Assembly (NCBI RefSeq): GCF_030028105.1
Contig: NC_092374.1
Coordinates: 177,778,057-177,842,056, forward strand
DNA from: Mobula birostris
Lineage: Eukaryota
DNA length: 64,000 nucleotides
Reading direction: 5' to 3'
The notes under the pieces are model-generated. The model was not told where the DNA came from. It did not search any database and saw nothing but the letters and a program-made list of their open reading frames with translations. The position numbers and the translations under genes are program-made. This document shows, one piece after another, positions 1,292 to 42,465 of the stretch. The first letter of the stretch is position 1, and every line of letters begins with the position of its first letter.

Positions 1292-3006
1292 ATGGGAAGG
1301 CCTCTAATTCTATACGTGAAGGAGATTTGCTATCCGATACTAGCGACGTTTGGCATCCCGGGTAAATTTGCCTATACCTTTCATTGGGTTGCTGCACTGT
1401 ATCAAGGTTATCAAGGGCTCTGTGATCTNNNNNNNNNNNNNNNNNNNNNNNNNNNNNNNNNNNNNNNNNNNNNNNNNNNNNNNNNNNNNNNNNNNNNNNN
1501 NNNNNNNNNNNNNNNNNNNNNNNNNNNNNNNNNNNNNNNNNNNNNNNNNNNNNNNNNNNNNNNNNNNNNNAGCGGTAAGGTTTAATAGAAACCTGATCAG
1601 CATATGCGAATAGATTGTTGCTGGATTCTTCTGAAGGGAGCCGAGTTTTTGCCTCGTATTAGAAGGCGGAAGGATATGTTTCTGCGCTGCATGACATTAT
1701 TTTTGGCAATGAATTTCTCACAATGCAGCCTGCTATGTTGTTATCAGAAGCCCTTTTATTAAGCTTTATTAGCTTTATTTGTTACGTGCATCGAATCATA
1801 CAGTGCATAGTGTCCTTTGAGTCAACGACCAACACAGTGCATGCAGAATGCTGCCCACAAGCGCTGCCATGCTTATTGCGCTCATAAGAGCTCATAACTT
1901 ACTAATCCTAACCCTTAATTCTTTTTCATGCTGCCTCATAATGAATGTTGTTACTTTCTTGAAAAACACTTCGACAGAATGCCTGCAGTAATTTGTCTCC
2001 ATATTTGTTAACGTGAAGCTAGCCTCGTTCACCACTGACACATTTGGCGGTTGTTTAATTGGTCATTATGTTGCTTACTTTCTTTCTGGTTCTTTCAGCG
2101 AACGTGGTGACGGCTGTGATACTCTACCGGGGAAAGTGCGGTCTCTCCAAAGGAATCACGCGGTACATGATGGCGATGGCGATCTCAGACCTGTTCGTGC
2201 TCATTGTTCACGTGTTACTCCGAGAAATCTACACTTACTATACACCTGGTTCTTTCCCCTCCCTCAGCGCAGTGTGCCGTTCATATGTACACTTGCGACT
2301 CCACAGCCTAGACTATTCCGTCTGGCTAACTGTGTCCTTTACCTTTGACCGTTTTGTCAGCATTTGCTGTCCAAAAGTGAGGCACAGATATTGCACGGAG
2401 AGGACGGCCACCGTGGTGATTGTGCTTTTGTGCATGCTGAGCTGCTTAAAATACATTCCCTTTCACTTCATGTACGAGCCTAGTTACACCATTGACAACG
2501 TGAACTGGGGGTGTCGGCCGAAATCCGTATACTTCACCTCCAACTGGTGGGTGGCTTTCACCTGGATGTGCAGCATATCTGTGTCGTTACTCCCCTTCGC
2601 TATCATTCTTCTCCTTAACGGACTGACGGTCAGACACATCATAGTAACCAGCAGGGTCCGACGTCGCCTAAAGGGCCAGGATGGTAAAGACAGCGAGACA
2701 GAAAGTCGGCGCAAGTCCATAGTTTTACTCTTCACAGTTTGCGGCACTTCAGTACTACTCTGGGCGACGGCATCGGTAACTAACATCTGTACTCGAGTCA
2801 CAATTAACTTTCAGGGCAAGGATCTCACAAGTCCCTCTACTGTAGCCAATGAAGTGGGAATACTGCTTATGCGTGTAGGCGTAGGAGCCAACACGTGTAT
2901 CTACGCAATGACCCAAAGTAAATTCAGACAGGAGCTGAAGAACGGGATTAAAAGTCTAAATTGTTTCAGCATTATACCTATGTATCGGACATGGCAGTCA
3001 GCCTAA
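1292..3006 (+). CDS. GPR139/GPR142-like class A orphan GPCR, gene A copy 1; exons 1292-1361 and 2099-3006; 325 aa
   Basis: Exon 1 encodes MGRPLILYVKEICYPILATFGIP with donor G|GTAAAT. Acceptor ttctttcAG|CG restores GIP-A-N (TM1) across a phase-1 intron. Motifs: MAISD (TM2), SVWLTVSFTFDRF (TM3), ECL2 WGC, LPF..LLN (TM5), LLWAT (TM6), NTCIY (TM7), helix 8 SKFRQE. No stops or frameshifts. Confidence 0.92.
1429..1570. other. 142-nt run of N in the gene A intron (copy 1)
   Basis: Directly visible; same length and flanks as 40888-41029. Confidence 0.99.
1762..1915 (-). mobile_element. Degenerate SINE-like 3' fragment in the gene A intron
   Basis: (AGCTTTATT)n tail followed by sequence I recall from elasmobranch SINE 3' regions; recognition from memory only. 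Confidence 0.4.
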
Positions 3007-3974: not shown

Positions 3975-5277
3975 ATACTTTTTGATTTGAATATACAGAT
4001 TTTAATGGTAGATTTTTAATTATTAAAGGAGTAATCTGTAACAGAAAAGTTGTTCTGGTCAATTTGTACGGTCCTAACTTAGATGATCCTTCTATTTTAC
4101 GAAATGTATTTGCATTACTGCCTGATTTAAATGAATATATGTTGATAATGGGCGGAGATTTTAACTGTTGTTTAAATGCTTTGATTGACAAGAGCTCAAC
4201 CAAATCAGCGACTTCCAAATCGCTCCGCATCACTTATTAACTCCTTTTTAACCGATATTGGATTGATTGAACATGGAGATATTTATACCCTGATGACAGG
4301 GAATATTCTTTTTTTCACATGTTTGTAAAAATATTCGAGGATCGATATATTATAGTCGATCCTCGCTTCTTGCCTAGTGTTAAGAACTGTGAATATGACG
4401 CTATTGCAATATCTGATCATGCACCTCTGTGTTTGTCTTTCGAATTTGATGATGTCATTCTTGCCCGCCCACCATGGCGTCTGTGTCAGACACTACTGCA
4501 GAACACCGACTCTGTCAGCTTCATTGAAACCAAGATAAAAGTTTTTTTTCTTTCTAATGATATAGGGGGGACGTCTAACTTAATTATATGGGATATTTTT
4601 AAAGCATTTTTACGTGGTCAGATCATTTTTTATTTCTCTAAGCTTAAAAAACAGACTAAAGTAGAATTAGATAAGATTTCAAAACAAATTAAAGACTTAG
4701 ATAATATTAATACGAACCCCCCCCCCCAATAATGATTTATTCAAACAAAGGTTGGAACACCAATCACAATATAAGTTACTAAGCTAAAGAGACAATTTTA
4801 TATGTTTGGAGATAAAAATTAACAAACTGATTCCACTTCAATTAAAAACGGCCAGAGCCAAAAGACAAATTTTGAAAATCCGTAGGAAAGATGGTACCCT
4901 GCTTTGGAAATATGAAGAAATTAATAGGGTTTTTCAAGATTTTTATAATGAACATTATAAATCTCAATTTCCAGTAGATTCTTCTAAAATGAATGCTATC
5001 TTACGAAAGATTGCTTTTCCTCACGTTTCGGTTGAATATCAATAAAATATTGATGTCCAAATTACTGAAGCCGAAATTCATAAAGCTTTTTTTTCAATGC
5101 AATCTGTTAAGGCCCCTGGACTTGATGGCCACCCTGTAGAAATTTATAAAAAATTTGGAAAAATGCTTTCTTCGTATACGTTGGAAAAGTGTAAGGACTC
5201 TTTTGAGAAAGGTGATTTACCCTCTACTTTTTATGAGGCTTCTATTTCTTTAATTCCTAAAAAGGAAAAGGATCCTA
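3975..5277 (+). mobile_element. L1-clade LINE ORF2 fragment (APE endonuclease, linker, RT start), disrupted
   Basis: VNLYGPN, IMGGDFNC, ISDHAP, PWRL, IWDIFKAFLRGQII, KAPGLDG, ISLIPKKEKDP; several stops and frameshifts; truncated at the CR1 junction. Confidence 0.88.
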
Positions 5278-8200
5278 CGTGCTACGTGCCAGTGAGGGTA
5301 GGAATAGGATGCTCTGGAGGATGAACAAGTGGCTGAGGAACTGGTGTAGGGAGCAGGGTTTCAGATTTCAGGATAATTGGGACTTCTTCTGGGGCAGGTG
5401 GGACCTATACAAGAGAGACGGGTTACACTTGAACTACAGGGGGACCAATATCCTTTCAGAGAAGTTTGTTAATGCTATTGGGGGGGCTTTAAACCAGATT
5501 TGCAGGGGGATGGGAACCACAGTACCAGAGATGACAGTGTGGCTGGGGTGAAAATAAATGATGTTAAAAGTTCAAGCAAATCCGCTAATAGAAAGGTTGT
5601 GACTGGTGGTAAAATTCTTCTGAGGTGTATATATTTCAATGCAAGCAGTATTGCGGGGAAGGCGGATGAGTTGAGCGCGTGGATTGACACGTGGAATTAT
5701 GACGTTGTAGCAATTAGTGAAACTTGGCTACAGGAGGGGCAGGACTGGCAGCTTAATATTCCAGGCTTCCGATGTTTCAGATGTGATCGAGGCAGAGGAA
5801 TGAAAGGTGGGGGAGTGGCATTGCTTGTTAGGGAAAATATTACAGCAGTGCTCAGGCAGGACAGATTAGAGGGCTCGTCTACTGAGTCCTTGTGGGTGGA
5901 GCTGAGAAACAGGAAAGGTATGGCCACAGTAGTGGGATTGTATTACAGACCACCCATTAGTCAAAGAGGATTGGAAGTGCAAATCTGCAGAGAGATAGCA
6001 GGCAACTGCAGGAAACATAAAGTTGTGGTGGTAGGGTATTTTAATTTTCCATACATTGATTGGGTCTTCCATACTGTTAGGGGCCTAGATGGTTTAGAGT
6101 TTGTAAAATGTGTTCAGGAAAGTTTTCTAAATCAATATATAGAGGGAACAACTAGAGGGGATGCAATATTGGATCTCCTGTTAGGAAATGAGTTAGGACA
6201 AGTGACAGAAGTCTGTGTAAGGGAGCACTTTGGTTCCAGTGATCATAACACCATTAGTTTCAACTTGATCATGGACACCGATAGATCTGGTCCTAGGGTT
6301 GGAAAAAGGCCATTTTTGAAGAAATGAGAAAGGATCTAAAAAGCATGGATTGGGACAGGTTGTTCTCTGGTATGGATGTGATCGGTAGGTGGGAAGCCTT
6401 CAAAGCAGAAATTTTGAGAGTGCAGAATTTGTATGTTCCTGTCAGGATTAAAGGCAAGGTGAAGAGGAATAAGGAACCTTGGTTCTCAAGGGATATTGCA
6501 ACTCTGATAAAGAAGAAGAGGGAGTTGTATAATTTGTATAGGAAGCAGGGAGTAAATAAGGTGCTTGAGGAGTATAAGAAGTGCAAGAAAATACTTAAGG
6601 AAGAAATCAGGAGGGCTAAAAGAAGACATGACGTTGCCTTGGCAGTCAAAGTGAAGGATAATCCAAAGAGCTTTTACAGGTATATTAAGAGCAAAAGGAT
6701 TGGAAGGGAGAAAATTGGTCCTCTTGAAGATCAGAGTGGTCGGCTATGTGCGGAACCAAAGGAAATGGGGGAGATCTTAAATAAGTTTTTTGCGTCTGTG
6801 TTTACTAAGGAAACTGGCATGAAGTCCATGGAATTAAGGGAAACAATTAGTCAGATCATGGAAACTGTACAGATCGAAAAGGAGGAGGTCCTTGCTGTCT
6901 TGAGGAAAATTAAAGTGGATAAATCCCCGGGACCTGACAGGGTGGTCCCTCGGACCTTGAAGGAGACTAGTGCTGAAATTGCAGGGGCCCTTGCTGAAAT
7001 ATTTAAAATGTCGCTGTCTACAGGTGAGGTGCCGGAGGATTGGAGAGTGGCTCATATTGTTCTGTTGTTTAAAAAATGATCGAAAAGTAATCCGGGAATT
7101 TATAGGCCAGTAAGTTTAACGTCGGTAGTAGGTAAGTTATTGGAGGGAGTACTAAGAGACAGAAGCTACAAGCATTTGGATAGACTGCGACCTATTAGGG
7201 AGAGTCAACATGGTTTTGTGCGTGGTAGGTCATGTTTGACCAATCTATTGGAGTTTTTCGAGGAGGTTACCAGGAAAGTGGATGAAGGGAAGGCAGTGGA
7301 TATTGTCTACATGGACTTCAGTAAGGCCTTTGACAAGGTCCCGCATGGGAGGTTAGTTACGAAAATGCAGTCGCTAGGTATACATGGAGAGGTGGTAAAT
7401 TGGATTAGACATTGGCTCAATGGAAGAAACCAGAGAGTGGGGGTAGAGAATTGCTTCTCTGAGTGGAGGCCTGTGACTAGTGGTGTGCCACAGAGATCAG
7501 TGCTGGGTCCATTGTTATTTATCATCTATATCAATGATCTGGATGTTAATGTGGTAAATTGGATCAGCAAATTTGCTGATGATACAAAGATTGGAGGTGT
7601 AGTAGACAGTGAGGAAGGTTTTCAGAGCCTGCAGAGGGACTTGCACCAGCTGGGAAAATGGGCTGCAAAATGCAAATGGAGTTTAATACAGACGAGTGTG
7701 AGATATTGCACGTTGGAAGGACAAACCAAGGTAAAACATACAGGGTTAATAGTAAGGCACTGAGGAGTGCAGTAGAACAGAGGGATCTGAGAATACAGAT
7801 ACAAAATTCCCTAAAAGTGGCGTCACAGGTAGATAGAGTCGTAAAGAGAGCTTTTGGTACATTGGCCTTTATTTATCAAAGTATTGAGTATAAGAGCTGG
7901 AATGTTATGATGAAGTTATATAAGGCATTGGTGAGGCCGAAACCAGAGTATTGTGTTCAGTTTTGGTCACCAAATTACAGGAAAGATATAAATAAGGTTG
8001 AAAGAGTGCAGAGAAGATCTACAAGGATGTTACCGGGACTTTAGAAACTCAGTTACAGAGAAAGGTTGAATAGGTTAGGACTTTATTCCCTGGAGCGTAG
8101 AAGAATGAGGGGAGATTTGATAGAGGTATATAAAACTATGATGGGTATAGATAGAGTGAATGCAAGCAGGCTATTTCCACTGAGGCAAGGGGAGAAAAAA

Positions 8201-12314: not shown

Positions 12315-14295
12315 AACTGAAGGAAGAGCTAATAAGAGATTTGAAAGTGGGAGCAGGAGGGGGAGATCCAAAACGATAGGAGTAGACAGGAGGGGGAGGG
12401 ATGGAGCCAAGAGCTGGACAGGCGATTGGCAAAAGGGATATGACAGGATCATGGGACAGGAGGCCCAGGAAGAAGGAACAGCGGGAGTGGGGGAAACACA
12501 GAGGATTGGCAAGTGGTATAGTCAGAGGGACAGAGGGAGAAAAAGGAGAGAGAAAGAGAGAGAATGTGTGTATATAAAGAAATAACGGATGGGGTATGAG
12601 GGGGAGGTGGGGTATTAGCGGAAGTTAGTGAAGAATGTTCATGCCATCAGGTTTGAGGCTACCCAGACGGAATATGAGGTGTCGTTCCTCCAACCTGAGT
12701 GTGGCTTCATCGTTACAGTAGAGGAGGCCGTGAATAGACATATCAGAATGGGAATGGGATGTGGAATTAAAATGTGTGGCCGCTGGAAGATTCTCCTTTC
12801 TCTGTTGGAGAGAGCGTAGGTGCACAGCGAAACGATCTCCCAGTCTGCGTCGGGTCTAGCCAATATATATAAGGCCACATCGGGAACACCGGACGCAGTA
12901 TATCACCCCAGCCAACTCACAGATGAAGTGTCGCCTCACCTGGAAGGACCGTCCGGGGCCCTGAATGGCGGTAAGGGAGGAAGTGTAAGGGCATGTGTAG
13001 CACTTGTTCCGCTTACAAGGATAAGTGCCAGGAGGGAGATCAGTGGGGAGGGATGGGGGGGACGAATGGACAAGGGAGTCTCGTACGGAGCGATCCCTGC
13101 GGAAAGCGGGGGTGCGGGGAGGGAAAGATGTGCTTAGTGGTAGGATCCCGTTGGACGAGGCGGAAATTACGGAGAATAATATGTTGGACCCGGAGGCTGG
13201 TGGGGTGGTAGGTGAGGACAAGGGGAACCCTATTCCTAGTGGGGTGACGGGAGGATGGAGTGAGAGCAGATGTGTGTGAAATGGGGGAGATGCGTTGAGA
13301 GCAGAGTTGATGGTGGAGGAAGGGAAGCCCCTTTCTTTAAAAAAGGAGGACATCTCCCACGTCCTGGAATGAAAAGTCTGCTCCTGAGAGCAGATGCGGC
13401 GGAGACGGAGGCATTGCGAGAAGGGGATGGCATTTTTGCAAGAGACACGGTGAGAAGAGGAATAGTCCAGATAGCTGCAAAGAGTCAGTAGGCTTATAGT
13501 AGACATCAGTAGATAAGCTGTCTCCAGAGATAGAGACAGAAAGATCTAGAAAGGGGAGGGAGGTGTCGGAAATGAACCAGGTAAACTTGCGAGCAGGGTG
13601 AAAGTTGGAGGCAAAGTTAACAAAGTCAACGAGATCAGCATGCGTGCAGGAAGCAGCGCCAATGCAGTCGTCGAGGAAGCGAAGGAAAAGTGGGGCACCG
13701 ATACCAGAATAGGTTTGGAACATAGATTGTTCCACAAAGCCAACAAAAAGACAGGCATAGCTAGGACACATACGGGTGCCCATAGCTACACCTTTAGTTT
13801 GGAGGAAGTGGGAGGAGCCAAAGGAGAAATTATTAAGAGTAAGGACTAATTCTGCTAGACGGAGCAGAGTGGTGGTAGAGAGGAACTGATTAGGTGTGGA
13901 ATCCAAAAAGTAGCCGAAAGCTTTGAGACCTTCCTGATGGGGGATGGAAGTATATAGGGACTGGACATACATGGTTATAATAAAGCGGTGGGGGCCAGGG
14001 AACTTAAAATCATCAAAAACTTTAACAGCGTGAGAAGTGTCACTTTCTCTCTCACTCCTTTTTCTCCCTCTGTCCCTCTCACTATCCCCCTTGGCCATCC
14101 TCTGGGTCCCCCCACCCCCAACTTTTCCTTCTCCCTGGGCCTCCTGTCCCATGATCCATGATCCGCACATATCCCTTTTGCCAATCACCTGTCCAGCTCT
14201 TGGCTCCATCCCTCCCCTTCCTCTCTTCTCCTATCATTTTGGAACCCTACTTCCCCCTCCCACTTTCAAATCTCTTACTAGCTCTTCTTTCAGTT

Positions 14296-17120: not shown

Positions 17121-20100
17121 GAGAAAGGAGTCTGAGAATCGGAGCCGGAGTGCGGCGGGAGCCATTTTGATTTTTTCTACTTATCATCTGAGTTAACAAA
17201 GGCGGCACCGCGCAGGCGTGTGACGTCTGGCAGTGAAGCGCGAAAGATTTAAAAGGAACACAGCCTTATACAGCGGGCAGCGCAATGAGCCGGGAGCAGA
17301 GAGAAGGCTTATGGACGTTGGCTCAACGGGATTAGGAGGAGACGGGAGAGGCAAAGTAGGCTTAGTTTTCTTTTTTTTCTGTTATTTGAAGAAAGGGGGA
17401 GAAATGATTATGAGCATTTAAACCCTGCCTTGACTAGCATTCTCTGCCAGTTCGTCCCAGATTCTGACCTGTGTCGTTGAACCCTATCATTGTGACTTCT
17501 GCCACCCGATTTTTGCCTGATTCTGCGTTTTGGATTTTGCCTGTTCCTGGACCTGATTTTTGCCTGCGCGCTCTGGATTGTCTGCCCTGGCCTAACTGCT
17601 TTTCCTGGTAAGACCTCAGCCTGCCATTTCGGATTCGTGTCTGCCTTCTGCTTTTGAATGACTGTTGTCTTTGTGCTCCCTAAAATACCCTGGTGAAAAA
17701 GTATTCGTTGCTCTGCACTTGAGTCCTGCCGAAACCCGACAGTTTCTGATTGCGTCCAAGGTATCCTGAAGTGGGAGGGTGAGCAGTCAGAGGCCGTGGT
17801 ACATATAGGTACTAATGACATAGATAAGAAAAGGGAAGAGGTCCTGAAAGGAGAACATAGGGAGTTAGGAAAGAAGTTGAGAAGAAGGACCGCAAAGGTA
17901 GTAATCTCGGGATTACTGCCTGTGCCACACTACAGTGAGAGTAGGAATGCAATGAGGTGGAGGATAAATGCGTGGCTGACGGATTGGAGCAGGAGACAGA
18001 GATTCAAGTTTCTGGATCATTGGGAAGTCTTTTGGCGCAGGTCTGACCTGTACAAAAAGGACGGGTTGCACTTGAATCCTAGGGGGGCAAATATCCTGGC
18101 GGGGAGATTTGCGAAGGCTGCTGGAGAGACTTTAAACTACAATGGCTGGCGGGGAGGGTCGGTGGGAATCAAATTGAAGAAACTAGGATACAGGAGGTTA
18201 GTTCACAAATAGAGAAAGCTAGCAGACCGTGTTTGAGGGAGGATAGGCAGGGGATGGAGAACGGGAGCGCTCAGACCGATGATGTAGGGGAGAAGGAAGA
18301 AAAAGTTAACAAAGTTCTTTGCAACATTAGAGATAATCAAAGAGTAAAAGGTGGAGAGTTTCTTAAATGCATCTATTTTAATGCTGGGAGCATTGTAAGA
18401 AAGGTGGACGAGCTTAGAGCGTGGATTGATACCTGGAAATATGATGTTGTAGCTATTAGTGAAACATGGTTGCAGGAGGGGTGTGATCGGCAACTAAATA
18501 TTCCTGGATTTAGTTGTGTCAGCTATGATAGAATCGAAGGGGCAAGCAAGAGCGGGAGGTGCTGCATTGCTTGTGAGAGAAAATATTACAACGGTGCTTT
18601 GGCAGGACAGATTAGTGGACTCGTCTAGGGAGGCTATTTGGGTGTAATTAATGAATGGGAAAAGTGTAGAAACGCTTATAGGGGTGTATTATAGACCACC
18701 TAATGGGGAGCGAGAACTGGAGGAGCAAATTTGTAAGGAGATAGCAGATGATTGTAGTGAGCACAAGGTTGTGATTGTGGGAGATTTTAATTTTCCACAC
18801 ATAGACTGGGAAACCCAATTTGTAAAAGAGCTGGATGGATTGGAGTTTGTAAAATGTGTGAAAAATAGTTTTTTTGCAGCAATACATAGAGGTACCAGCA
18901 AGAGAATTGGCAGTGTTGGATCAACTGTTAGGGAATGAGATAGGTCAGGTGACGGAGGTATGTGTTGGGGAGCACTTCGGGTCCAGTCAACACAATGCCA
19001 TTAGTTTCAATATAATTATGGACAAGGATAGGACTGGACCCAAGTTTGGGATTTTTGATTGGAGAAAGGGTAACTTTGAGGAGATGCGAAAGGATTTAAA
19101 AGGAGTGGATTGGGACAATTTGTTTTATAGGAAGGATGTGATAGAGAAATGGAGGTCTTTTCAAGGTGAAATTTTGAGGGTACAGAATCTTTATGTTCCT
19201 GTTAGGTTGAAAGGAAAGGTTAAAACGTTTGAGAGAGTCATGGTTTCCAGGGGATATTGGAAACTTGGTTCGGAAAAAGAGAGAGATCTACAACAGAAAT
19301 ACGCAGCTTGGAGTAAATGACGTGCTCGAGGAATATAAAGAGTGTAAAACGAATCTGAAGAAAGAATTAGAAATGCTAAAAGAAGCCATGAGGTTGCTTT
19401 GTCAAATAAGGTGAAAATGAATCCAAAGGGTTTCTACTGTTATATTAATAGCAAAAGGGTAGTGAGGAATAAAATTGGTCCCTTAGAAAGTCAGAGTGGA
19501 CGGCTATGTGCGGAGCCAAAAGAGATGGGGGAGTTTTTGAACAATTTCTTTTCTTTGGTTTTCACTGAGGAGAAGGATATTGAATTCTATAAGGTAATGG
19601 AAACAGGCAGAGAAGTTATACAAACTAGGATGATTGAGGAAGAGGGAGTACTGGCGCTTTTAAGGAATATAAACGTGCATTAGTATCCGGGTCCTGTCAG
19701 GATATTCACTTGGAACTTGGGGGAAGTCAATGTGGAAAATAGCAGGGAGTCTGACAGACATGTTTCAAATGTCATTAGAAACTGGATGGTGCCAGAGAAT
19801 TGGCGTATTGCTCATGTTGTTCCATTCTTCAAAAAGTGTTCTAAGAGTAAACCTAGCAATTATCGGCCTGTGACTTTGACATCAGTGGTGGGTAAATTGA
19901 TAGAAAGTATTCGTAGACATGGTATGTATAATTATCTGAATAGACAGGGTCTGATTAGGAACAGTCAACATGGATTTGTTTCGTGGAAAATCATATTTGA
20001 CAAATCTTATTGAATTCTTTTGAAGAGGTTACCAGGTAAATTGGCGAGGGTAAAGCGGTAAACGTTGTCTATATGGACTTCATTAGGGCCTTTGACAAGG

Positions 20101-21260
20101 TCCCACATAGAAGTATAGTTAGGAAGGTTCAATCATTAGGTATTAATATTGAAGTAGTAAAATGGATTCAGCAGTGGCTGGATGCGAAACGCCAGACAGC
20201 AGCAGTGGATAACTGTTTGTCAGACTGGAGGCTGGTGACTAGTGGTGTGTCTTAGGAATCTGTACTGGTTCAATATTGTTTGTCATATATATTAATGATC
20301 TGGATGATATGGTGGTAAATTGGATTGATAAGTATGCAGATGGTACGATGATAGATGGAGCTGTGGATAATGACTTAGGTTTTCAAAGCTTGCAGAAAGA
20401 TTTAGTCCAGTTAGAAGAATGGACTGAAAGATGGCAGATGGAGTTTAATGCTACTAAATGTGAGGTGCTACATTTCGGTAGGACTAATCAAAATAGGACA
20501 TACCTGGTAAATGGCAGGGCTTTGAAGAATGCAGTAGAACAGAGGGATCTAGGAAAAATGGTGCATAGTTCCCTGAAGGTGGAATCTCATGTGCATAGGG
20601 TATTGAAGAAAGCTTTTGGTATGCTGGCCTTCATAAATCAGAGCATTGAGTATGGTAGTTGGGAGGTAATGTTGAAATTGTATAAGGCATTGGTAAAGCC
20701 AAATTTGGAGTATTGTGTACAGTTCTGTTCACCGAATTATAAGGAAGCCGTCAACAAAATGGAGAGAGTGCAGAGAAGGCTTACTAAAATGTTACCTGGG
20801 TTTCATCTCCTAAGTTACAGAGAAAGGTTGAACAAGTTGCGTCTTTATTCTTAGGAGCCCAGAAGGTTGATAGGGGACTTGTTAGACGTACTTAAAATTA
20901 TGAGAGGGATAGATAGAGTTGCCGTGGATAGGATTTTTCCATTGAGAGTAGGGGAGATTCTAACAAGAGGACATGAGTTGCGAGTTAAAGGGCAAAAGTT
21001 TAGGAGTAACAGGAGGGGGGACTTATTTACTCAGAGAGTGGTAGCTGTGTCGAACGAGCTTCCAGCAGGAGTGGTTGAGGCAGGTTCGATGTTGTTATTT
21101 AAAGTTAACTTGGATAGCTATATGGACTGGAAAGGAATGCAGGGTTATGGGCTGAGTGCAGGTCCGTGGGACTAGGTGAGAGTAAGAGTTCGGCACGGAT
21201 TAGAAGAGCCGAGATGGTCTGTTTCCGTACTGTAATTGTTATATGTTATATGGTTATATG
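17121..21260 (+). mobile_element. Near-full-length degenerate CR1 LINE (5'UTR, partial ORF1 SGNH esterase, ORF2 APE-RT)
   Basis: VHIGTND...DGLHLN (ORF1); ISETW, GDFNFP, NYRPVTLTS, AFDKVPH, YAD (ORF2); (GTTATATG)n tail; imperfect TSD GTAACAGAG (17112-17120) / GTAACGGAG (21261-21269). Confidence 0.92.
17410..17740 (+). mobile_element. Probable LTR fragment replacing the 5' half of CR1 ORF1
   Basis: Non-CR1, pyrimidine-rich insert ending ...ctgcacttgagtcctgccgaaacccgaCA; CR1 ORF1 resumes directly after it. Confidence 0.45.
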
Positions 21261-24537: not shown

Positions 24538-26605
24538 TCAGCAACAAACAAGATTTAAGCAAGTAAGCGTGTTCTTCACCTCCTGCCTGAACTTGCTCTG
24601 GGTCATTCCATAGATCCACGTGTTTGCGCAGGAGCTGAAGAGCATCAGTAAGACCCCTACCTCATTGGCGATGAAAGAGGGGCTTGTGAGATCCTTGTCC
24701 GAGAAATTGACTGTGACTCGAGTGCAGATGAAGGTTACAGTTTGCGTTGTCCACATCAGTATGTAAGTACCGGACACGGTGAAGAGTAAGATGATGGACT
24801 TACGCCGACTCTCCATCTCACTGTCATTTCCATCATGTCCCTTCAGGCGCCGTCGAACCCTACTGAACACTACAATGTTCCGGACCGTCAGCCCGTTCAG
24901 GACTACGATCAGTACGAATGGAATTAAGGACAGAGAGCTGCTACAAATCCAGGAGTAAACCACCCACCAAATGTAGGTGAAATACGCGACTATAGGCTGA
25001 CACCCATAGTTCACGTTATCCATAACGTAGCGTGGCTCGTACATGAAGTGAAAAGGGATGTATTTTAAGCAGCTCAGCACGCATAACAACACAACAACCA
25101 CGACGGCCGTCCTCTCCGTACAATATCTGAGTCTCAGTTTCGGACAGGAAATGCTGACAAAGCGGTCAAAGGTAAAAGAAACGGTTAACCAGACGGAATA
25201 ATCCAACGTAACGATTCGCAGGTAAATATCAGATGGACACACTGTGCTGCGGGTCAGGAAGGAATGAGGGTGATAGCAAGTGTAGATCTTTTGCAGTAAC
25301 ACGTGGAGTATGAGAACGAACAGGTCGGAGATCGTCATCGCCATCATGTAACGCGTCATTCCTCCAGTCAGACCACACTTTCCCCGGTACAGAATCGTTG
25401 CGGTGAGCAGACCTACTGTTCAATACAGAAAGACACAGGAAATTAATGTGTAGACAGAAGTACCATATACATTAAGGCTGGATATTCTGTTGGCAGTGAT
25501 GGAGACATACCACATTATTTAGACAGATAATGATTAAATAGAATTCAAAGAGCTCAGCCCCTCCATCACACTGGCCTACCGGTTCTATTAGCAGAGTCGT
25601 GCTCAGTTCAACGGATTATATAAGGATTTCATACTTGGAAATATGAATTTATGATTCAAATTGTTCTTTCTGTAACATTAAAGATAATTCTGTTCCCTAC
25701 AAAAACGTGACTGGTACGTCCTGGAAAAACGCATCAAGCAAGGCAGCATCCATGCAATGTTTTCATGTTTCAGGATCATTAGTTTCCAACAAAGTTGATG
25801 ATGAACTTCAAAGACTCCATAAGCGATCCTAGTCCTGAAACAACTTCCATATATACCGTTTGATTGTGTTTTGGAATATGTTTCAGTTATCACAATTAGA
25901 GCATTAGTAAGAAATATTTCGTATTGATTCAATTCAAAAACGATCGTGCAATGTTCTAAGTGTCCATTAATCTTATCGGTTCAGGGTAAGATTCCCTCTA
26001 ACTCCCACAGCTGGCCCCATCATTTTCGTGTTCTTCAGTCTCGTATGGCAGCAACCACCTCCCTGATCATCCCGTCCCCACCTCTGCAACGAATATATGC
26101 CTGATACATAGTAGTTTTCTCTCTGTTATTGAAAAATCCCTCTTTATCTTTAACTATCTCCATCATTTCCCCCGACGCTGCTGATATCAGATCCCCATTC
26201 TTTCAATATAGTATCGCCATTATCAAACTAATTTAATTACATTAATATTCATTACTCATTTCACAATGACCAATATTAATTCCTCCTTTTCAATGCTTTT
26301 TAAAATTCCATTTAATTCCACCTATAGTTACCCAAACTTCGGCATCTATGTAAATTACCTTCAAATTTGTTTCCTGTCAGTTTAGTTGTGTATTGTCACG
26401 TTCCCGTAATGGATTTTGAATATTCTTGCATTATTAATTGCAATTCACGTTGCTGCTAGAAGAAAGAGAAAGAAATCACCATCGCAAAGAATTGTTGGAA
26501 CTGATCAAAAAGACATTAGTCTAATTAAGACTTACCGGGGATACCAAACGCCGCCAGAATCGGATAAATCATTTCATTGACATACAGAATTGGAGCACGT
26601 CCCAT
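24538..26605 (-). CDS. GPR139/GPR142-like class A orphan GPCR, gene B; exons 26605-26536 and 25415-24538; 315 aa
   Basis: The 70-nt exon 1 encodes MGRAPILYVNEMIYPILAAFGIP with donor G|GTAAGT (not in the ORF track). Acceptor gtattgaaCAG|TAG. Same phase-1 intron position as gene A; motifs TISD, DRF, YGC, LMWTT, NTWIY; ORF intact. Confidence 0.92.
25940..26400 (-). mobile_element. Ancient CR1 remnant in the gene B intron
   Basis: Weak minus-strand similarity to the CR1 ORF2 linker/RT region. Confidence 0.4.
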
Positions 26606-36694: not shown

Positions 36695-39600
36695 TGTAAC
36701 GTGATCGGCAACAATGAATTATCAATTGAAGCAGGTTTTATAAACAAACATAAACGTTTATTAAACTCTGCTCAACAAATAGCGAAAAGTATTCCGTGAT
36801 TAACTTCCCATTCCTCACTTGCAGGAACTGTAGGTGATCGCCACTTCCTCATTAATAATTCCTTTTCAAAATAATATCCTAATGGCACCTTCTCAATTTC
36901 ACTATCTGGAAGAGCTTGGTCGTTTAATTTGATAATATCAGGGTATCTACTCTGATCTGCTATAATATCCTTCCGAGATAAAGATAAATCTTCATGTCAG
37001 ACTTACTACAATAATCTTGTCAAACAATGAAGGTAAGAAAGTTTCTGACACATCCTTAAAATTTGAACCCCGAGTTGAACAGTCATGGGTAACAGACCCA
37101 TCCTGCACATCAATCTTTTTAACCATAGATTGGGTTACAACACAGGAAGAAATTGTGTTAGAATCCATCTTTGTTTTCTCGGAAATGGGCTTTATTGTCA
37201 AATGCACTGCAGGAAAAACGTGTCCATCTGCTATGTTATTTCCTAACAACAGAAAAACATCATTCACGGGCAAACTGGGTTGTAGTCCTACTTTAACAGG
37301 CCCTGTAATTAACCCTGACCTTAAATTTACTTTATGCCAATGTACCGGCATAAGGGCACTCCCAACTGCTCGTATATAGCTTACCGCACCAATGTCAGAC
37401 TCATCACTAAACTTTAGAACACTGTCTAATATTTGTGATTGAGAAGCTCCAGTATCTCTGAGTATTTTTATTGACACAGGAGTGGATCCCTCTTGCAAGG
37501 ATACAAATCCCTCCATTATAAAATGTTCATATGCCCTCTTAACCTGGTCAGACTCTAACGAAACTTCATTTGTATTTATCGAACTCTGTGGATTTACAGG
37601 AGTTTCAATCTGCTGCACACAAGCATCCGGGTCTGCTTCCTTCTCTTTGTTTTTCAATCAATAGCAGTTAGCTATTACATGCCCAGGTTTATTACAATAA
37701 TTACAAATAGGACCAGAATATCTTTCCTTCACGTGACTCCCTTCATTCCTACCTTTCTCACTAATTTCTGATCTAATTTCTGGTTTACCTTGACTCTCTG
37801 TGCTATTATTCCTTTTAAAAGTTCTACCTGGAGAATATTTACTCTTATGAATTCAAGCATACTCATCAGCTAATTTAGCAGACTCCTGTAATGTATCAGT
37901 GTCCCTCTCATTTAAGTATGCCCTTACTTCAGCAGGATTGTTCCTTTTAAATTCCTCCAGTAAAATCAACTCTTTTAATTTATTATACTCCCCATTCACA
38001 TTTTTAGAGGAAACTCATCTCTCAAAACGCACAGATTTATCGTAGGTAAATTCCACGTAAGTTTTGTCCACGGATTTCTTCAAATTTCTAAATCTTTCTC
38101 TATAAGCTTCTGAACCAGTTCATACCCTTTCCGTATATGCTGCTTCACAATATCATAATCAAGTGCCTGTTCAGCAGTTAAAGCTGTACACACTTGTTGT
38201 GCCTTACCTCTAATTATACTTTGTAACATCACTGGCCGTTGATCTTTCGGCCACCCTGAACTCAAAGCATCAATTTCAAAATGTTGGAAATATTTGTCTA
38301 CTTCTATCTCATTAAACGGAGGAGGCAAAATAACTTCTCGACAAGCAAAAAACTGTTTGATAGAAACAGAGGACTGATTTTCCATCCTTAATTTCTCCAC
38401 CTCCAACTCAAAATTCCTCTGCTTATTAGCTTCTGTTTCTTTAAATTCCGTTACTTTATTTGCCTCTCTTTCGGCAATTTCCGCTTTAAATTGTTCAAAA
38501 TTTATCTGTTCAAGATGTAACTGCATTTCCAGTTTACTCATTGGAAACCTCCCTAAGACCTCATCCTCAACCTTTCCCGAAATTTCCCTTGCTCCGCGAT
38601 TTTCTCTGAATTTCGGGTTTCGTTGTAACCTTCGTATTTACTTTAAGATTCCAACTTTCTAGCAATCTCGGATACATCACTCTTTCTCGCCTTCGCACAT
38701 AACTCGGGGTCCGGAGATTCCATAAAGTCGTCAATATTCATTGCTGCCGAATATCACCCACAGACCAATCAAACAAAAGAACTGGGTATTTCCCTTTTCC
38801 AAATCAAATGATAATTAAACAAGCACTTAAGCTCAAAATCGGAAGATCCCGGGCGAGCTCCCAGTTTATGTCACTTGATCGGAATCAATGAATATAAATT
38901 GAGGCATGTTTTATAAACAAACATAAACATTTATTAAACTCTGTTCAACAAATAGGGAAAAGTATTCAAGCGACTAACTTAACCGGAAGTTAACTGCTAT
39001 ACAGAAACTCTCGAACAGCTCTTTAAAGGGTAAATACGAAAACAGTTCTTAAAGTGGTAAATTCGAATGTCCAAGCAATCCACACAGTCAATAAGGATGG
39101 ACTTCTCTGGAAACAGATTTATTCAAACACGTGACGTTACTGCTGATTCTCCAAAGGATTCATGATGAAGGAAATAATACGTGTTAAAGGAACTGACCTT
39201 TTCCTGGCAAGCAGACACTGCAGAACTTCCCTGCTCTTGCAGGAGGTATCTCAGATGCAGGTCGCTATATTGTGAACGAATCCTCAATAAGGTCGATCCT
39301 TTATAAAGACGCCGAACGACTCAAACTTTATTCCGATCCTTCAGGTTCCCGTCCTTTAATAAAGTCTTCTCTCTCCAATACTACAGTCAAGGGAAGATTA
39401 TAGATGCAACACGCAAACCTGGCAGCAATTGGCGAACTGCCAGCACCAATCTTTGCACCTTAAAATAGAAAAGAAAGCTCCGTTTCAAAACGAAACTGCG
39501 TCATAACAAATACGCAGCATAACGGTGTAGCTAACGAAGCAAACAACAACTCAACTGAAACCAGACTAAATACTAACTGCGTCACACCAGGGGTCTCTGT

Positions 39601-40750: not shown

Positions 40751-42465
40751 ATGGGAAGGCCTCTAATTCTATACGTGAAGGAGATTTGCTATCCGATACT
40801 AGCGACGTTTGGCATCCCGGGTAAATTTGCCTATACCTTTCATTGGGTTGCTGCACTGTATCAAGGTTATCAAGGGCTCTGTGATCTNNNNNNNNNNNNN
40901 NNNNNNNNNNNNNNNNNNNNNNNNNNNNNNNNNNNNNNNNNNNNNNNNNNNNNNNNNNNNNNNNNNNNNNNNNNNNNNNNNNNNNNNNNNNNNNNNNNNN
41001 NNNNNNNNNNNNNNNNNNNNNNNNNNNNNAGCGGTAAGGTTTAATAGAAACCTGATCAGCATATGCGAATAGATTGTTGCTGGATTCTTCTGAAGGGAGC
41101 CGAGTTTTTGCCTCGTATTAGAAGGCGGAAGGATATGTTTCTGCGCTGCATGACATTATTTTTGGCAATGAATTTCTCACAATGCAGCCTGCTATGTTGT
41201 TATCAGAAGCCCTTTTATTAAGCTTTATTAGCTTTATTTGTTACGTGCATCGAATCATACAGTGCATAGTGTCCTTTGAGTCAACGACCAACACAGTGCA
41301 TGCAGAATGCTGCCCACAAGCGCTGCCATGTTTATTGCGCTCATAAGAGCTCATAACTTACTAATCCTAACCCTTAATTCTTTTTCATGCTGCCTCATAA
41401 TGAATGTTGTTGCTTTCTTGAAAAACACTTCGACAGAATGCCTGCAGTAATTTGTCTCCATATTTGTTAACGTGAAGCTAGCCTCGTTCACCACTGACAC
41501 ATTTGGCGGTTGTTTAATTGGTCATTATGTTGCTTACTTTCTTTCTGGTTCTTTCAGCGAACGTGGTGACGGCTGTGATACTCTACCGGGGAAAGTGCGG
41601 TCTCTCCAAAGGAATCACGCGGTACATGATGGCGATGGCGATCTCAGACCTGTTCGTGCTCATTGTTCACGTGTTACTCCGAGAAATCTACACTTACTAT
41701 ACACCTGGTTCTTTCCCCTCCCTCAGCGCAGTGTGCCGTTCATATGTACACTTGCGACTCCACAGCCTAGACTATTCCGTCTGGCTAACTGTGTCCTTTA
41801 CCTTTGACCGTTTTGTCAGCATTTGCTGTCCAAAAGTGAGGCACAGATATTGCACGGAGAGGACGGCCACCGTGGTGATTGTGCTTTTGTGCATGCTGAG
41901 CTGCTTAAAATACATTCCCTTTCACTTCATGTACGAGCCTAGTTACACCATTGACAACGTGAACTGGGGGTGTCGGCCGAAATCCGTATACTTCACCTCC
42001 AACTGGTGGGTGGCTTTCACCTGGATGTGCAGCATATCTGTGTCGTTACTCCCCTTCGCTATCATTCTTCTCCTTAACGGACTGACGGTCAGACACATCA
42101 TAGTAACCAGCAGGGTCCGACGTCGCCTAAAGGGCCAGGATGGTAAAGACAGCGAGACAGAAAGTCGGCGCAAGTCCATAGTTTTACTCTTCACAGTTTG
42201 CGGCACTTCAGTACTACTCTGGGCGACGGCATCGGTAACTAACATCTGTACTCGAGTCACAATTAACTTTCAGGGCAAGGATCTCACAAGTCCCTCTACT
42301 GTAGCCAATGAAGTGGGAATACTGCTTATGCGTGTAGGCGTAGGAGCCAACACGTGTATCTACGCAATGACCCAAAGTAAATTCAGACAGGAGCTGAAGA
42401 ACGGGATTAAAAGTCTAAATTGTTTCAGCATTATACCTATGTATCGGACATGGCAGTCAGCCTAA
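40751..42465 (+). CDS. GPR139/GPR142-like GPCR, gene A copy 2; exons 40751-40820 and 41558-42465; 325 aa
   Basis: Same splice sites as copy 1; translated protein identical in the ORF track. Confidence 0.92.
40888..41029. other. 142-nt run of N in the gene A intron (copy 2)
   Basis: Directly visible. Confidence 0.99.

Follow-up and report, generated by a model that had tools for sequence, protein, structure and literature searches.

The five residues R-V-G-V-G in transmembrane helix 7 (TM7) of a receptor of Mobula birostris, here called gene A, almost certainly accumulated stepwise, in at least four steps, during the evolution of rays, as judged from the nested states of its relatives. A sequence-only reading had taken them for the product of one length-neutral template switch, which rewrote the LFSSC of the nearby gene B as RVGVG. 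What remains is a possible template switch, old and fixed, in a coding exon of a vertebrate, which would have altered functionally important positions of a G protein-coupled receptor (GPCR). The account favoured here, with a probability of about 0.55, is a stepwise series around an imperfect inverted repeat, in which the second step, Ser-Cys to Ala-Gly, would have been a short template switch. For this step taken singly our confidence, which is a judgement and not a computed value, lies slightly above an even chance. A smaller and older switch than the one first proposed thus has roughly even odds, and it would belong to a type of mutation that is already known. If true, it would show that template switches can persist over deep time and look like positive selection in families of receptors.

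The window, which is the whole stretch of 64,000 nucleotides that was analysed, contains gene A in two copies and gene B, arranged as follows:

1292 to 1361, forward strand: coding exon 1 of gene A, copy 1 (23 codons and 1 base, then a GT donor), located by tblastn with the N-termini of relatives
2099 to 3006, forward strand: coding exon 2 of gene A, copy 1, with the body of seven transmembrane helices
24538 to 25415, reverse strand: coding exon 2 of gene B, about 70% identical to A, with TM7 reading L-F-S-S-C-A-N-T
26536 to 26605, reverse strand: coding exon 1 of gene B
40751 to 42465, forward strand: gene A, copy 2, with exon 1 at 40751-40820, exon 2 at 41558-42465 and the TM7 tract at 42331-42354

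Exon 1 spliced to position 2099 gives a frame of 325 amino acids with a terminal stop only, and the ATG at 2068 is intronic, together with the first 10 codons of the 312-residue open reading frame (ORF). Residue numbers in this paper count from that ORF, and those of the spliced protein are higher by 13. The database models P0122 and P0123 begin at the intronic ATG (2068-2098), while the true N-terminus is exon 1 (1292-1361), and first exons are mis-called in the database models of several relatives too. The RVGVG tract is present in both copies (2872-2895 and 42331-42354) and leaves the ORF of 312 codons intact, as had been claimed, and the ORF does not differ between the copies. Both copies sit in a tandem duplication of 39.46 kb (window positions 1-24534 and 39461-64000, 99.8% identity) and therefore represent one event. 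They were counted once, and their use as independent support was rejected.

By their sequences, A and B are class A (rhodopsin-like) GPCRs, and A is an intact gene of two exons. The match to PF00001 scored 70.7 bits against a curated cut-off of 30.5, and gene A carries the motifs SDL (D2.50), DRF (DRY-like) and NTCIY (NxxxY). In a structure model of gene A (pLDDT 81.7) TM7 is a single helix through RVGVG, but such a model is blind to point changes and the intact helix is no evidence of function. The top matches of a fold search with this model were class A receptors. Sequence searches gave 931 relatives (clusters, E<=0.001), and the 120 listed were all from sharks or rays and mostly labelled 'probable GPR139', which points to a very large chondrichthyan expansion of receptors bearing this automatic label. 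No description of the expansion was found in a literature search mainly of papers outside subscription journals; it is possibly more interesting than the TM7 finding itself.

Human GPR139 is the best sequence match among solved structures, a weak one (E 1.5e-6), and it supplied the TM7 register: R269 is 7.43, V270 is 7.44, G271 is 7.45, V272 is 7.46, G273 is 7.47, N275 is 7.49 and Y279 is 7.53. The two proteins (PDB 7VUG and 9M42 for GPR139) share the class A fold and the absence of proline at 7.50, where GPR139 has F (PMC8807744) and A has T. They differ in sequence, with 20% identity in the fold match and L-L-N-T-A in GPR139 against R-V-G-V-G in A. The low similarity and the 931 paralogous matches speak against one-to-one orthology of A with vertebrate GPR139.

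The tract in question and its elements lie at the following positions:

2869 to 2877, forward strand: codons 7.42-7.44 (M268 R269 V270); 2872-2880 forms the left arm of the imperfect inverted repeat
2877 to 2878, forward strand: adjacent double change from C,A to A,G (Ser7.45Gly), relative to the orthologue of four other organisms
2881 to 2886, forward strand: spacer of 6 nt, codons 7.46-7.47, with the symmetry axis between 2883 and 2884
2887 to 2895, forward strand: right arm and putative template, codons A7.48 N7.49 T7.50, where the NTxxY motif begins
24619 to 24635, forward strand: antisense of TM7 of B; against A 2872-2888, 7 letters match the antisense only, 7 also match the forward reading and 3 are mismatches

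The codons for RVGVG in A and LFSSC in B are present as the sequence-only reading gave them, and so are the match of 14/17 between A 2872-2888 and the antisense of B and the hairpin in which the left arm pairs with 2887-2895 at 8/9. The right arm is nearly invariant, as N at 7.49 and T at 7.50 each occur in 119 of the 120 listed relatives. Only one of the 857 windows of 17 nt in A scores 14/17 against B antisense within 50 nt. By itself this score is unremarkable: when codon pairs were shuffled, 72 of 400 trials produced some window of at least 14/17. Seven of the 14 matches hold for the forward reading of B as well and thus reflect shared ancestral self-complementarity. An antisense-minus-forward excess of at least 7 was reached in only 2 of 400 codon-pair shuffles, and the antisense match thus coincides with the most divergent tract of A beyond chance expectation. 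A stretch of 36 nt in A folds at -7.3 kcal/mol (z -3.2; equalled in 3 of 200 shuffles), whereas the corresponding stretch of B shows no such folding (z +0.6); hairpin potential is therefore higher in A than in B, with B standing in for the ancestor.

A and B differ at 10 positions of the tract, a comparison between paralogues about 23% apart in which B is not the ancestor. Seven of these differences equal the antisense template, three in the Arg-Val codons and four in the spacer; the three that do not (2877, 2878 and 2882) are exactly the late steps described below. In Ala-Gly-type genes 15/17 letters match B antisense, and each of the 7 positions at which they differ from B agrees with the template. 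The antisense signal is therefore present as claimed, and what has to be given up is its assignment to one recent event: it would stem from earlier changes of smaller extent, Ser-Cys to Ala-Gly being the most plausible one.

The order of the steps was derived at the protein level, from residue counts in the 120 listed relatives of the 931 and from a tree. At 7.43 L occurs in 61/120 and R in 18/120, and V is found at 7.44 in 15/120. Position 7.45 has S in 109/120 and G in none; 7.46 has A in 4/120 and V in 1/120; 7.47 has C in 111/120 and G in 6/120. These counts for L, S and C support the polarity that had been expected, with L-x-S-S/C-C as the ancestral state. The tree comprised 48 proteins, namely the 43 closest matches minus P0021 plus A, B, P0121, P0122, P0127 and P0128; columns 7.42-7.48 were dropped for its construction, and nine shark rows served as the outgroup.

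The states are nested in this protein tree in the order L-x-SSC, RVSSC, RVSAG, RVSVG, RVGVG. M-L-x-S-S-C is the usual reading in sharks, in gene B and in the basal genes of rays, with M-H-x in some; B is basal in the batoid cluster. An I-R-V clade holds 24 of the 48 rows (support 99/97) and has Ser/Cys-Cys in skates, sawfish and stingrays. Within it, sawfish, stingray and Mobula genes form an Ala/Val-Gly clade of 9 rows, which appears as one change (91/82, a support under the starred level); the 15 I-R-V rows without Ala/Val-Gly, among them every skate gene, are paraphyletic to this clade. The orthologues of A in Hemitrygon and Mobula hypostoma read RVSVG (100/100). In the tree RVGVG is confined to the window copies and a M. 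birostris record; this named protein shares 99.7% identity with the ORF and likewise has RVGVG, so that the state is documented by the window and two database proteins, possibly from one assembly. Other paralogues of the window species are known as database proteins only. The tract thus changed on at least four branches (I-R-V, Ala-Gly, Val and Gly), with Arg7.43 old and Gly7.45 recent. The skate-ray and sawfish-stingray splits are more than 100 million years old. A TM7-only search with an RVSAG protein returned 13 proteins, none of them a new Ala-Gly gene, and a search for short protein fragments across TM7 gave no candidate. When viral, prokaryote and metagenome collections were scanned for DNA loci, an R-V-S-S-C protein serving as query, no relative turned up.

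A clade of A and B was rejected (AU p=1.6e-6), and with it B as the ancestor of A; on this phylogeny B is a distant paralogue. One switch from LFSSC to RVGVG in gene A, for which the 14/17 antisense match on its most divergent tract had spoken, is refuted: RVSVG is the state of the orthologues in Hemitrygon and Mobula hypostoma as well as in four sequencing runs, RVSAG and RVSSC are found in paralogues, the codons for Gly and Val mismatch the template, and the RVSSC/RVSCC, RVSAG and RVSVG intermediates in nested clades across skates, sawfish, stingrays and Mobula are the very observation that this reading had named as contrary evidence.

The DNA of relatives was taken from 4 of 24 runs (X6, X9, X13 and X18; four other organisms) over the region 2800-2960. 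The tract is spanned by 27 contigs, 26 listed and 1 deduced from a depth step; the listed rows run from 2832 to 2928, and 31 further rows are seemingly those near the ends. Phasing by depth sums was unique at 13/13 places in X6 and at 12/13 in X18, and ambiguous at several places in X9 and X13, for which solutions were chosen for consistency across runs. The contigs lean to A-like genes of about 7-9 gene lineages, Ser-Cys contigs being unaligned through the site. All 27 contigs have A at 2878 (Ser7.45), and the orthologue contig (one per run, 5-6 differences) encodes R-V-S-V-G with C at 2877; the change at 2877-2878 in the window creates a direct repeat of 5 nt (2875-2879 equals 2881-2885). 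Among the listed rows 2883 is unchanged and T at 2881 is absent, and codon 7.46 ends in A in 27/27. The third base of codon 7.47 is A in 9, C in 12 and T in 6 contigs under the chosen phasing solutions, and Cys is encoded there in 6/27 (Ala-Cys genes). The Val7.44 codon ends in C in 23/27, and CGC and CGG occur among the Arg codons. Most relatives have C at both 2877 and 2889, which reduces the pairing of the arms to 7/9, and the letters for perfect arms occur only in different genes.

Based on these data, the following course is proposed; the protein-level order and the codons of the Ala-Gly clade were observed, and the ancestral Ser codon and the mechanisms are deduced. The codons for Arg-Val-Ser and Ala-Asn-Thr form an imperfect inverted repeat about two central codons. 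Before the split of skates and rays, M-L-L changed to I-R-V (step 1). In the ancestor of a clade of sawfish, stingray and Mobula genes, Ser-Cys gave way to Ala-Gly, most likely through one switch inverting the central 2-6 bases (step 2). Ala then changed to Val in the orthologue line of A, by what would be a single transition at 2882 (step 3), and Ser to Gly by a double change in the window species only, for which the direct repeat lying 6 nt downstream may have served as template (step 4). For step 4, slippage on the 5-nt direct repeat is a guess; a template switch from the right arm was rejected, since it predicts T and not A at 2877.

The argument for a switch at step 2 starts from codon 7.46. 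Gene B and a loose end encoding M-L-L-N-S-C have TCC TGC, the reverse complement of which, GCA GGA, encodes Ala-Gly. The ancestral codon 7.46 would have ended in a pyrimidine, because the sister clade has Cys at this position, and Ala (GCA) then needs two changes, one of them silent; the ancestral Ser codon is taken here from B and the loose ends instead of sister genes. Positions 2883 and 2884 are neighbours astride the symmetry axis of the repeat, and the Ala-Gly branch is short (about 0.02 changes per column). For such a branch a single short inversion is a simpler account than a set of three or four transversions. The inversion fits at 2881-2884 in most contigs, at 2883 in 27/27 and at 2886 in 9/27. 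The product of a full 6-base inversion may not be ancestral, as 7.47 ends in A in 9/27.

The strongest rival, possible at distinctly less than even odds, holds that every step was an ordinary point substitution and that the antisense match is a coincidence. Coincidence would be aided by the code itself, as Ser/Ala and Arg-Val/Asn-Thr codons are mutually reverse complementary, and by the ancestral half of the 14 matches and the frequency with which shuffles reach that score. Ser-Cys to Ala-Gly changes both codons on one branch of the tree (the 9-row clade), but Ala-Cys contigs exist and a Narcine gene reads Ser-Gly, and these genes could be intermediates; the Ala-Cys contigs sit in an apparently derived subgroup. 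A loose-end consensus of X9 (4 contigs, agreement 0.71) reads I-R-L-S-A-G before 2889, with Ala and Gly codons ending in C, and if this is one real gene it is a possible independent origin of Ala-Gly. Microinversions, moreover, are orders of magnitude rarer, being far rarer than substitutions in birds (PMC3123225). Against this rival stands the need for a silent C-to-A transversion at 2883 beside T-to-G at 2884, at the axis and on a short branch, as well as for a chance match of all seven older differences (7/7) to the antisense template.

Step 1 might likewise have been a copy of the Asn-Thr arm, which fits at its changed bases, and this is put forward tentatively. A copy of the right arm predicts a T-ending Val codon, whereas the codon mostly ends in C, as noted above, and this and the CGC and CGG codons for Arg are points for point substitution. 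The skate genes with H-V, H-I or R-I may be intermediates of this step, and a placement of the skate H-V, H-I, R-I and Y-V genes as sister to I-R-V was compatible with the data (AU p=0.117), again in line with substitutions. That the repeat was a switch hotspot used twice, for I-R-V and then for Ala-Gly, with each event fixed and each founding a ray receptor subfamily, is unlikely. If true, it would mean that switching put an Arg into the ligand pocket, removed the sodium-pocket serine and the conserved Cys, and drove a lasting change of function in a receptor family of vertebrates.

An ancient single switch from L-L-S-S-C to R-V-S-A-G, after which the R-V-S-S-C paralogues regained Ser-Cys by conversion in a tandem cluster, is improbable. 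Tandem gene clusters do undergo conversion, and the 15/17 match of Ala-Gly-type letters, with 7/7 differences fitting, would be accounted for. The 15 paraphyletic I-R-V rows without Ala/Val-Gly, however, would require many independent reversions.

A short switch at step 2 has its closest known counterparts in yeast. Spacer inversion and arm homogenisation between the arms of inverted repeats were described there by Abraham and Hazkani-Covo (2021), and adjacent codons were likewise changed in frame. The spacer inversions in yeast genes involve 2-5 bases and change up to two residues, and yeast template switches altogether alter up to five neighbouring residues, five being reached in REG2 (PMC8604942). 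The yeast cases are recent and their parent is known, with arms of more than 9 bp that are usually perfect (PMC8604942); the supplementary tables of that paper may include cases with imperfect arms. The ray candidate, in contrast, would be ancient and fixed across several ray orders, with parent codons that are inferred and with imperfect arms, 8/9 in A and 7/9 in most relatives. The four-point model of short-range switches (Loytynoja and Goldman, 2017, PMC5453318; Walker et al., 2021, PMC7954356) also resembles the present case, in that a cluster of changes derives from a reverse-complement template within 100 nt and hairpin potential is raised. Its tests need a divergence of 1-2%, and at the roughly 23% between A and B the comparison merges several events, which serves as a caution that paralogues so far apart can fuse several events into one apparent inversion. 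The pair-HMM criterion is a log-probability ratio of at least 9 against a linear alignment (PMC7954356), and template-switch events of great apes are depleted in coding regions (PMC5453318, PMC7954356). No comparable vertebrate coding template switch was found in a literature search mainly of papers outside subscription journals.

In class A GPCRs, 7.43 is a listed ligand-site position, and 7.45 and 7.46 are sodium-pocket positions (PMC8038156). The Arg of TM7 had also been suspected of being a cryptic inactivating change; as an inactivating membrane charge it was rejected, for it is retained in 23 of the 48 tree rows, and rather than damage we infer a residue of the pocket that has long been retained and influences which ligand is chosen. 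In human GPR139, T278I lowered the potency of Phe 15-fold and that of Trp 23-fold (PMC6367278, Table 3), and T278 aligns with V272 of gene A. The loss of polar side chains at 7.45 and 7.46 would probably weaken the sodium pocket and shift potency or basal activity. The forms SSC, SAG, SVG and GVG make up a natural graded set for probing this pocket. At 7 positions gene A is unlike both orthologues, and at 5 of these (L64P, P71R, L104V, I229V and S271G) the residue replaced is conserved in 82-100% of 44 reference rows; 5 changes are private to the M. hypostoma orthologue. The window copy looks intact, and these changes suggest relaxed constraint in Mobula. The M. hypostoma orthologue (P0001) has Leu changed to Arg at ORF position 183 in TM5, where Leu occurs in 82% of the reference rows, which hints at relaxed constraint as well.

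Several minor observations were made on the relatives and on the window. The R-V-S-A-C paralogues (r18, r25, r31, three in X13), which are not among the 120 listed proteins, have codons that make up a perfect palindrome of 10 nt (2879-2888) about the axis of the inverted repeat and would be either reversions from Gly or intermediates. One X9/X13 paralogue lacks two single bases (equivalents of 2922 and 2924), which causes a frameshift just past TM7; it is probably a pseudogene and appears to have gained Val7.46 independently. A 210-Mb contig is given as the location of five accessions (four distinct proteins) near-identical to B, and these records together with the duplication suggest a recent array of an A+B unit or uncollapsed haplotypes. 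Broken ORFs at 4319-4732, 5800-8044, 12856-14209, 18254-20854 and 36992-38541, with their duplicates, resemble pieces of mobile elements, which by their translations would be endonuclease and reverse-transcriptase pieces (LINE, Penelope-type) and gag/protease-like pieces (LTR element).
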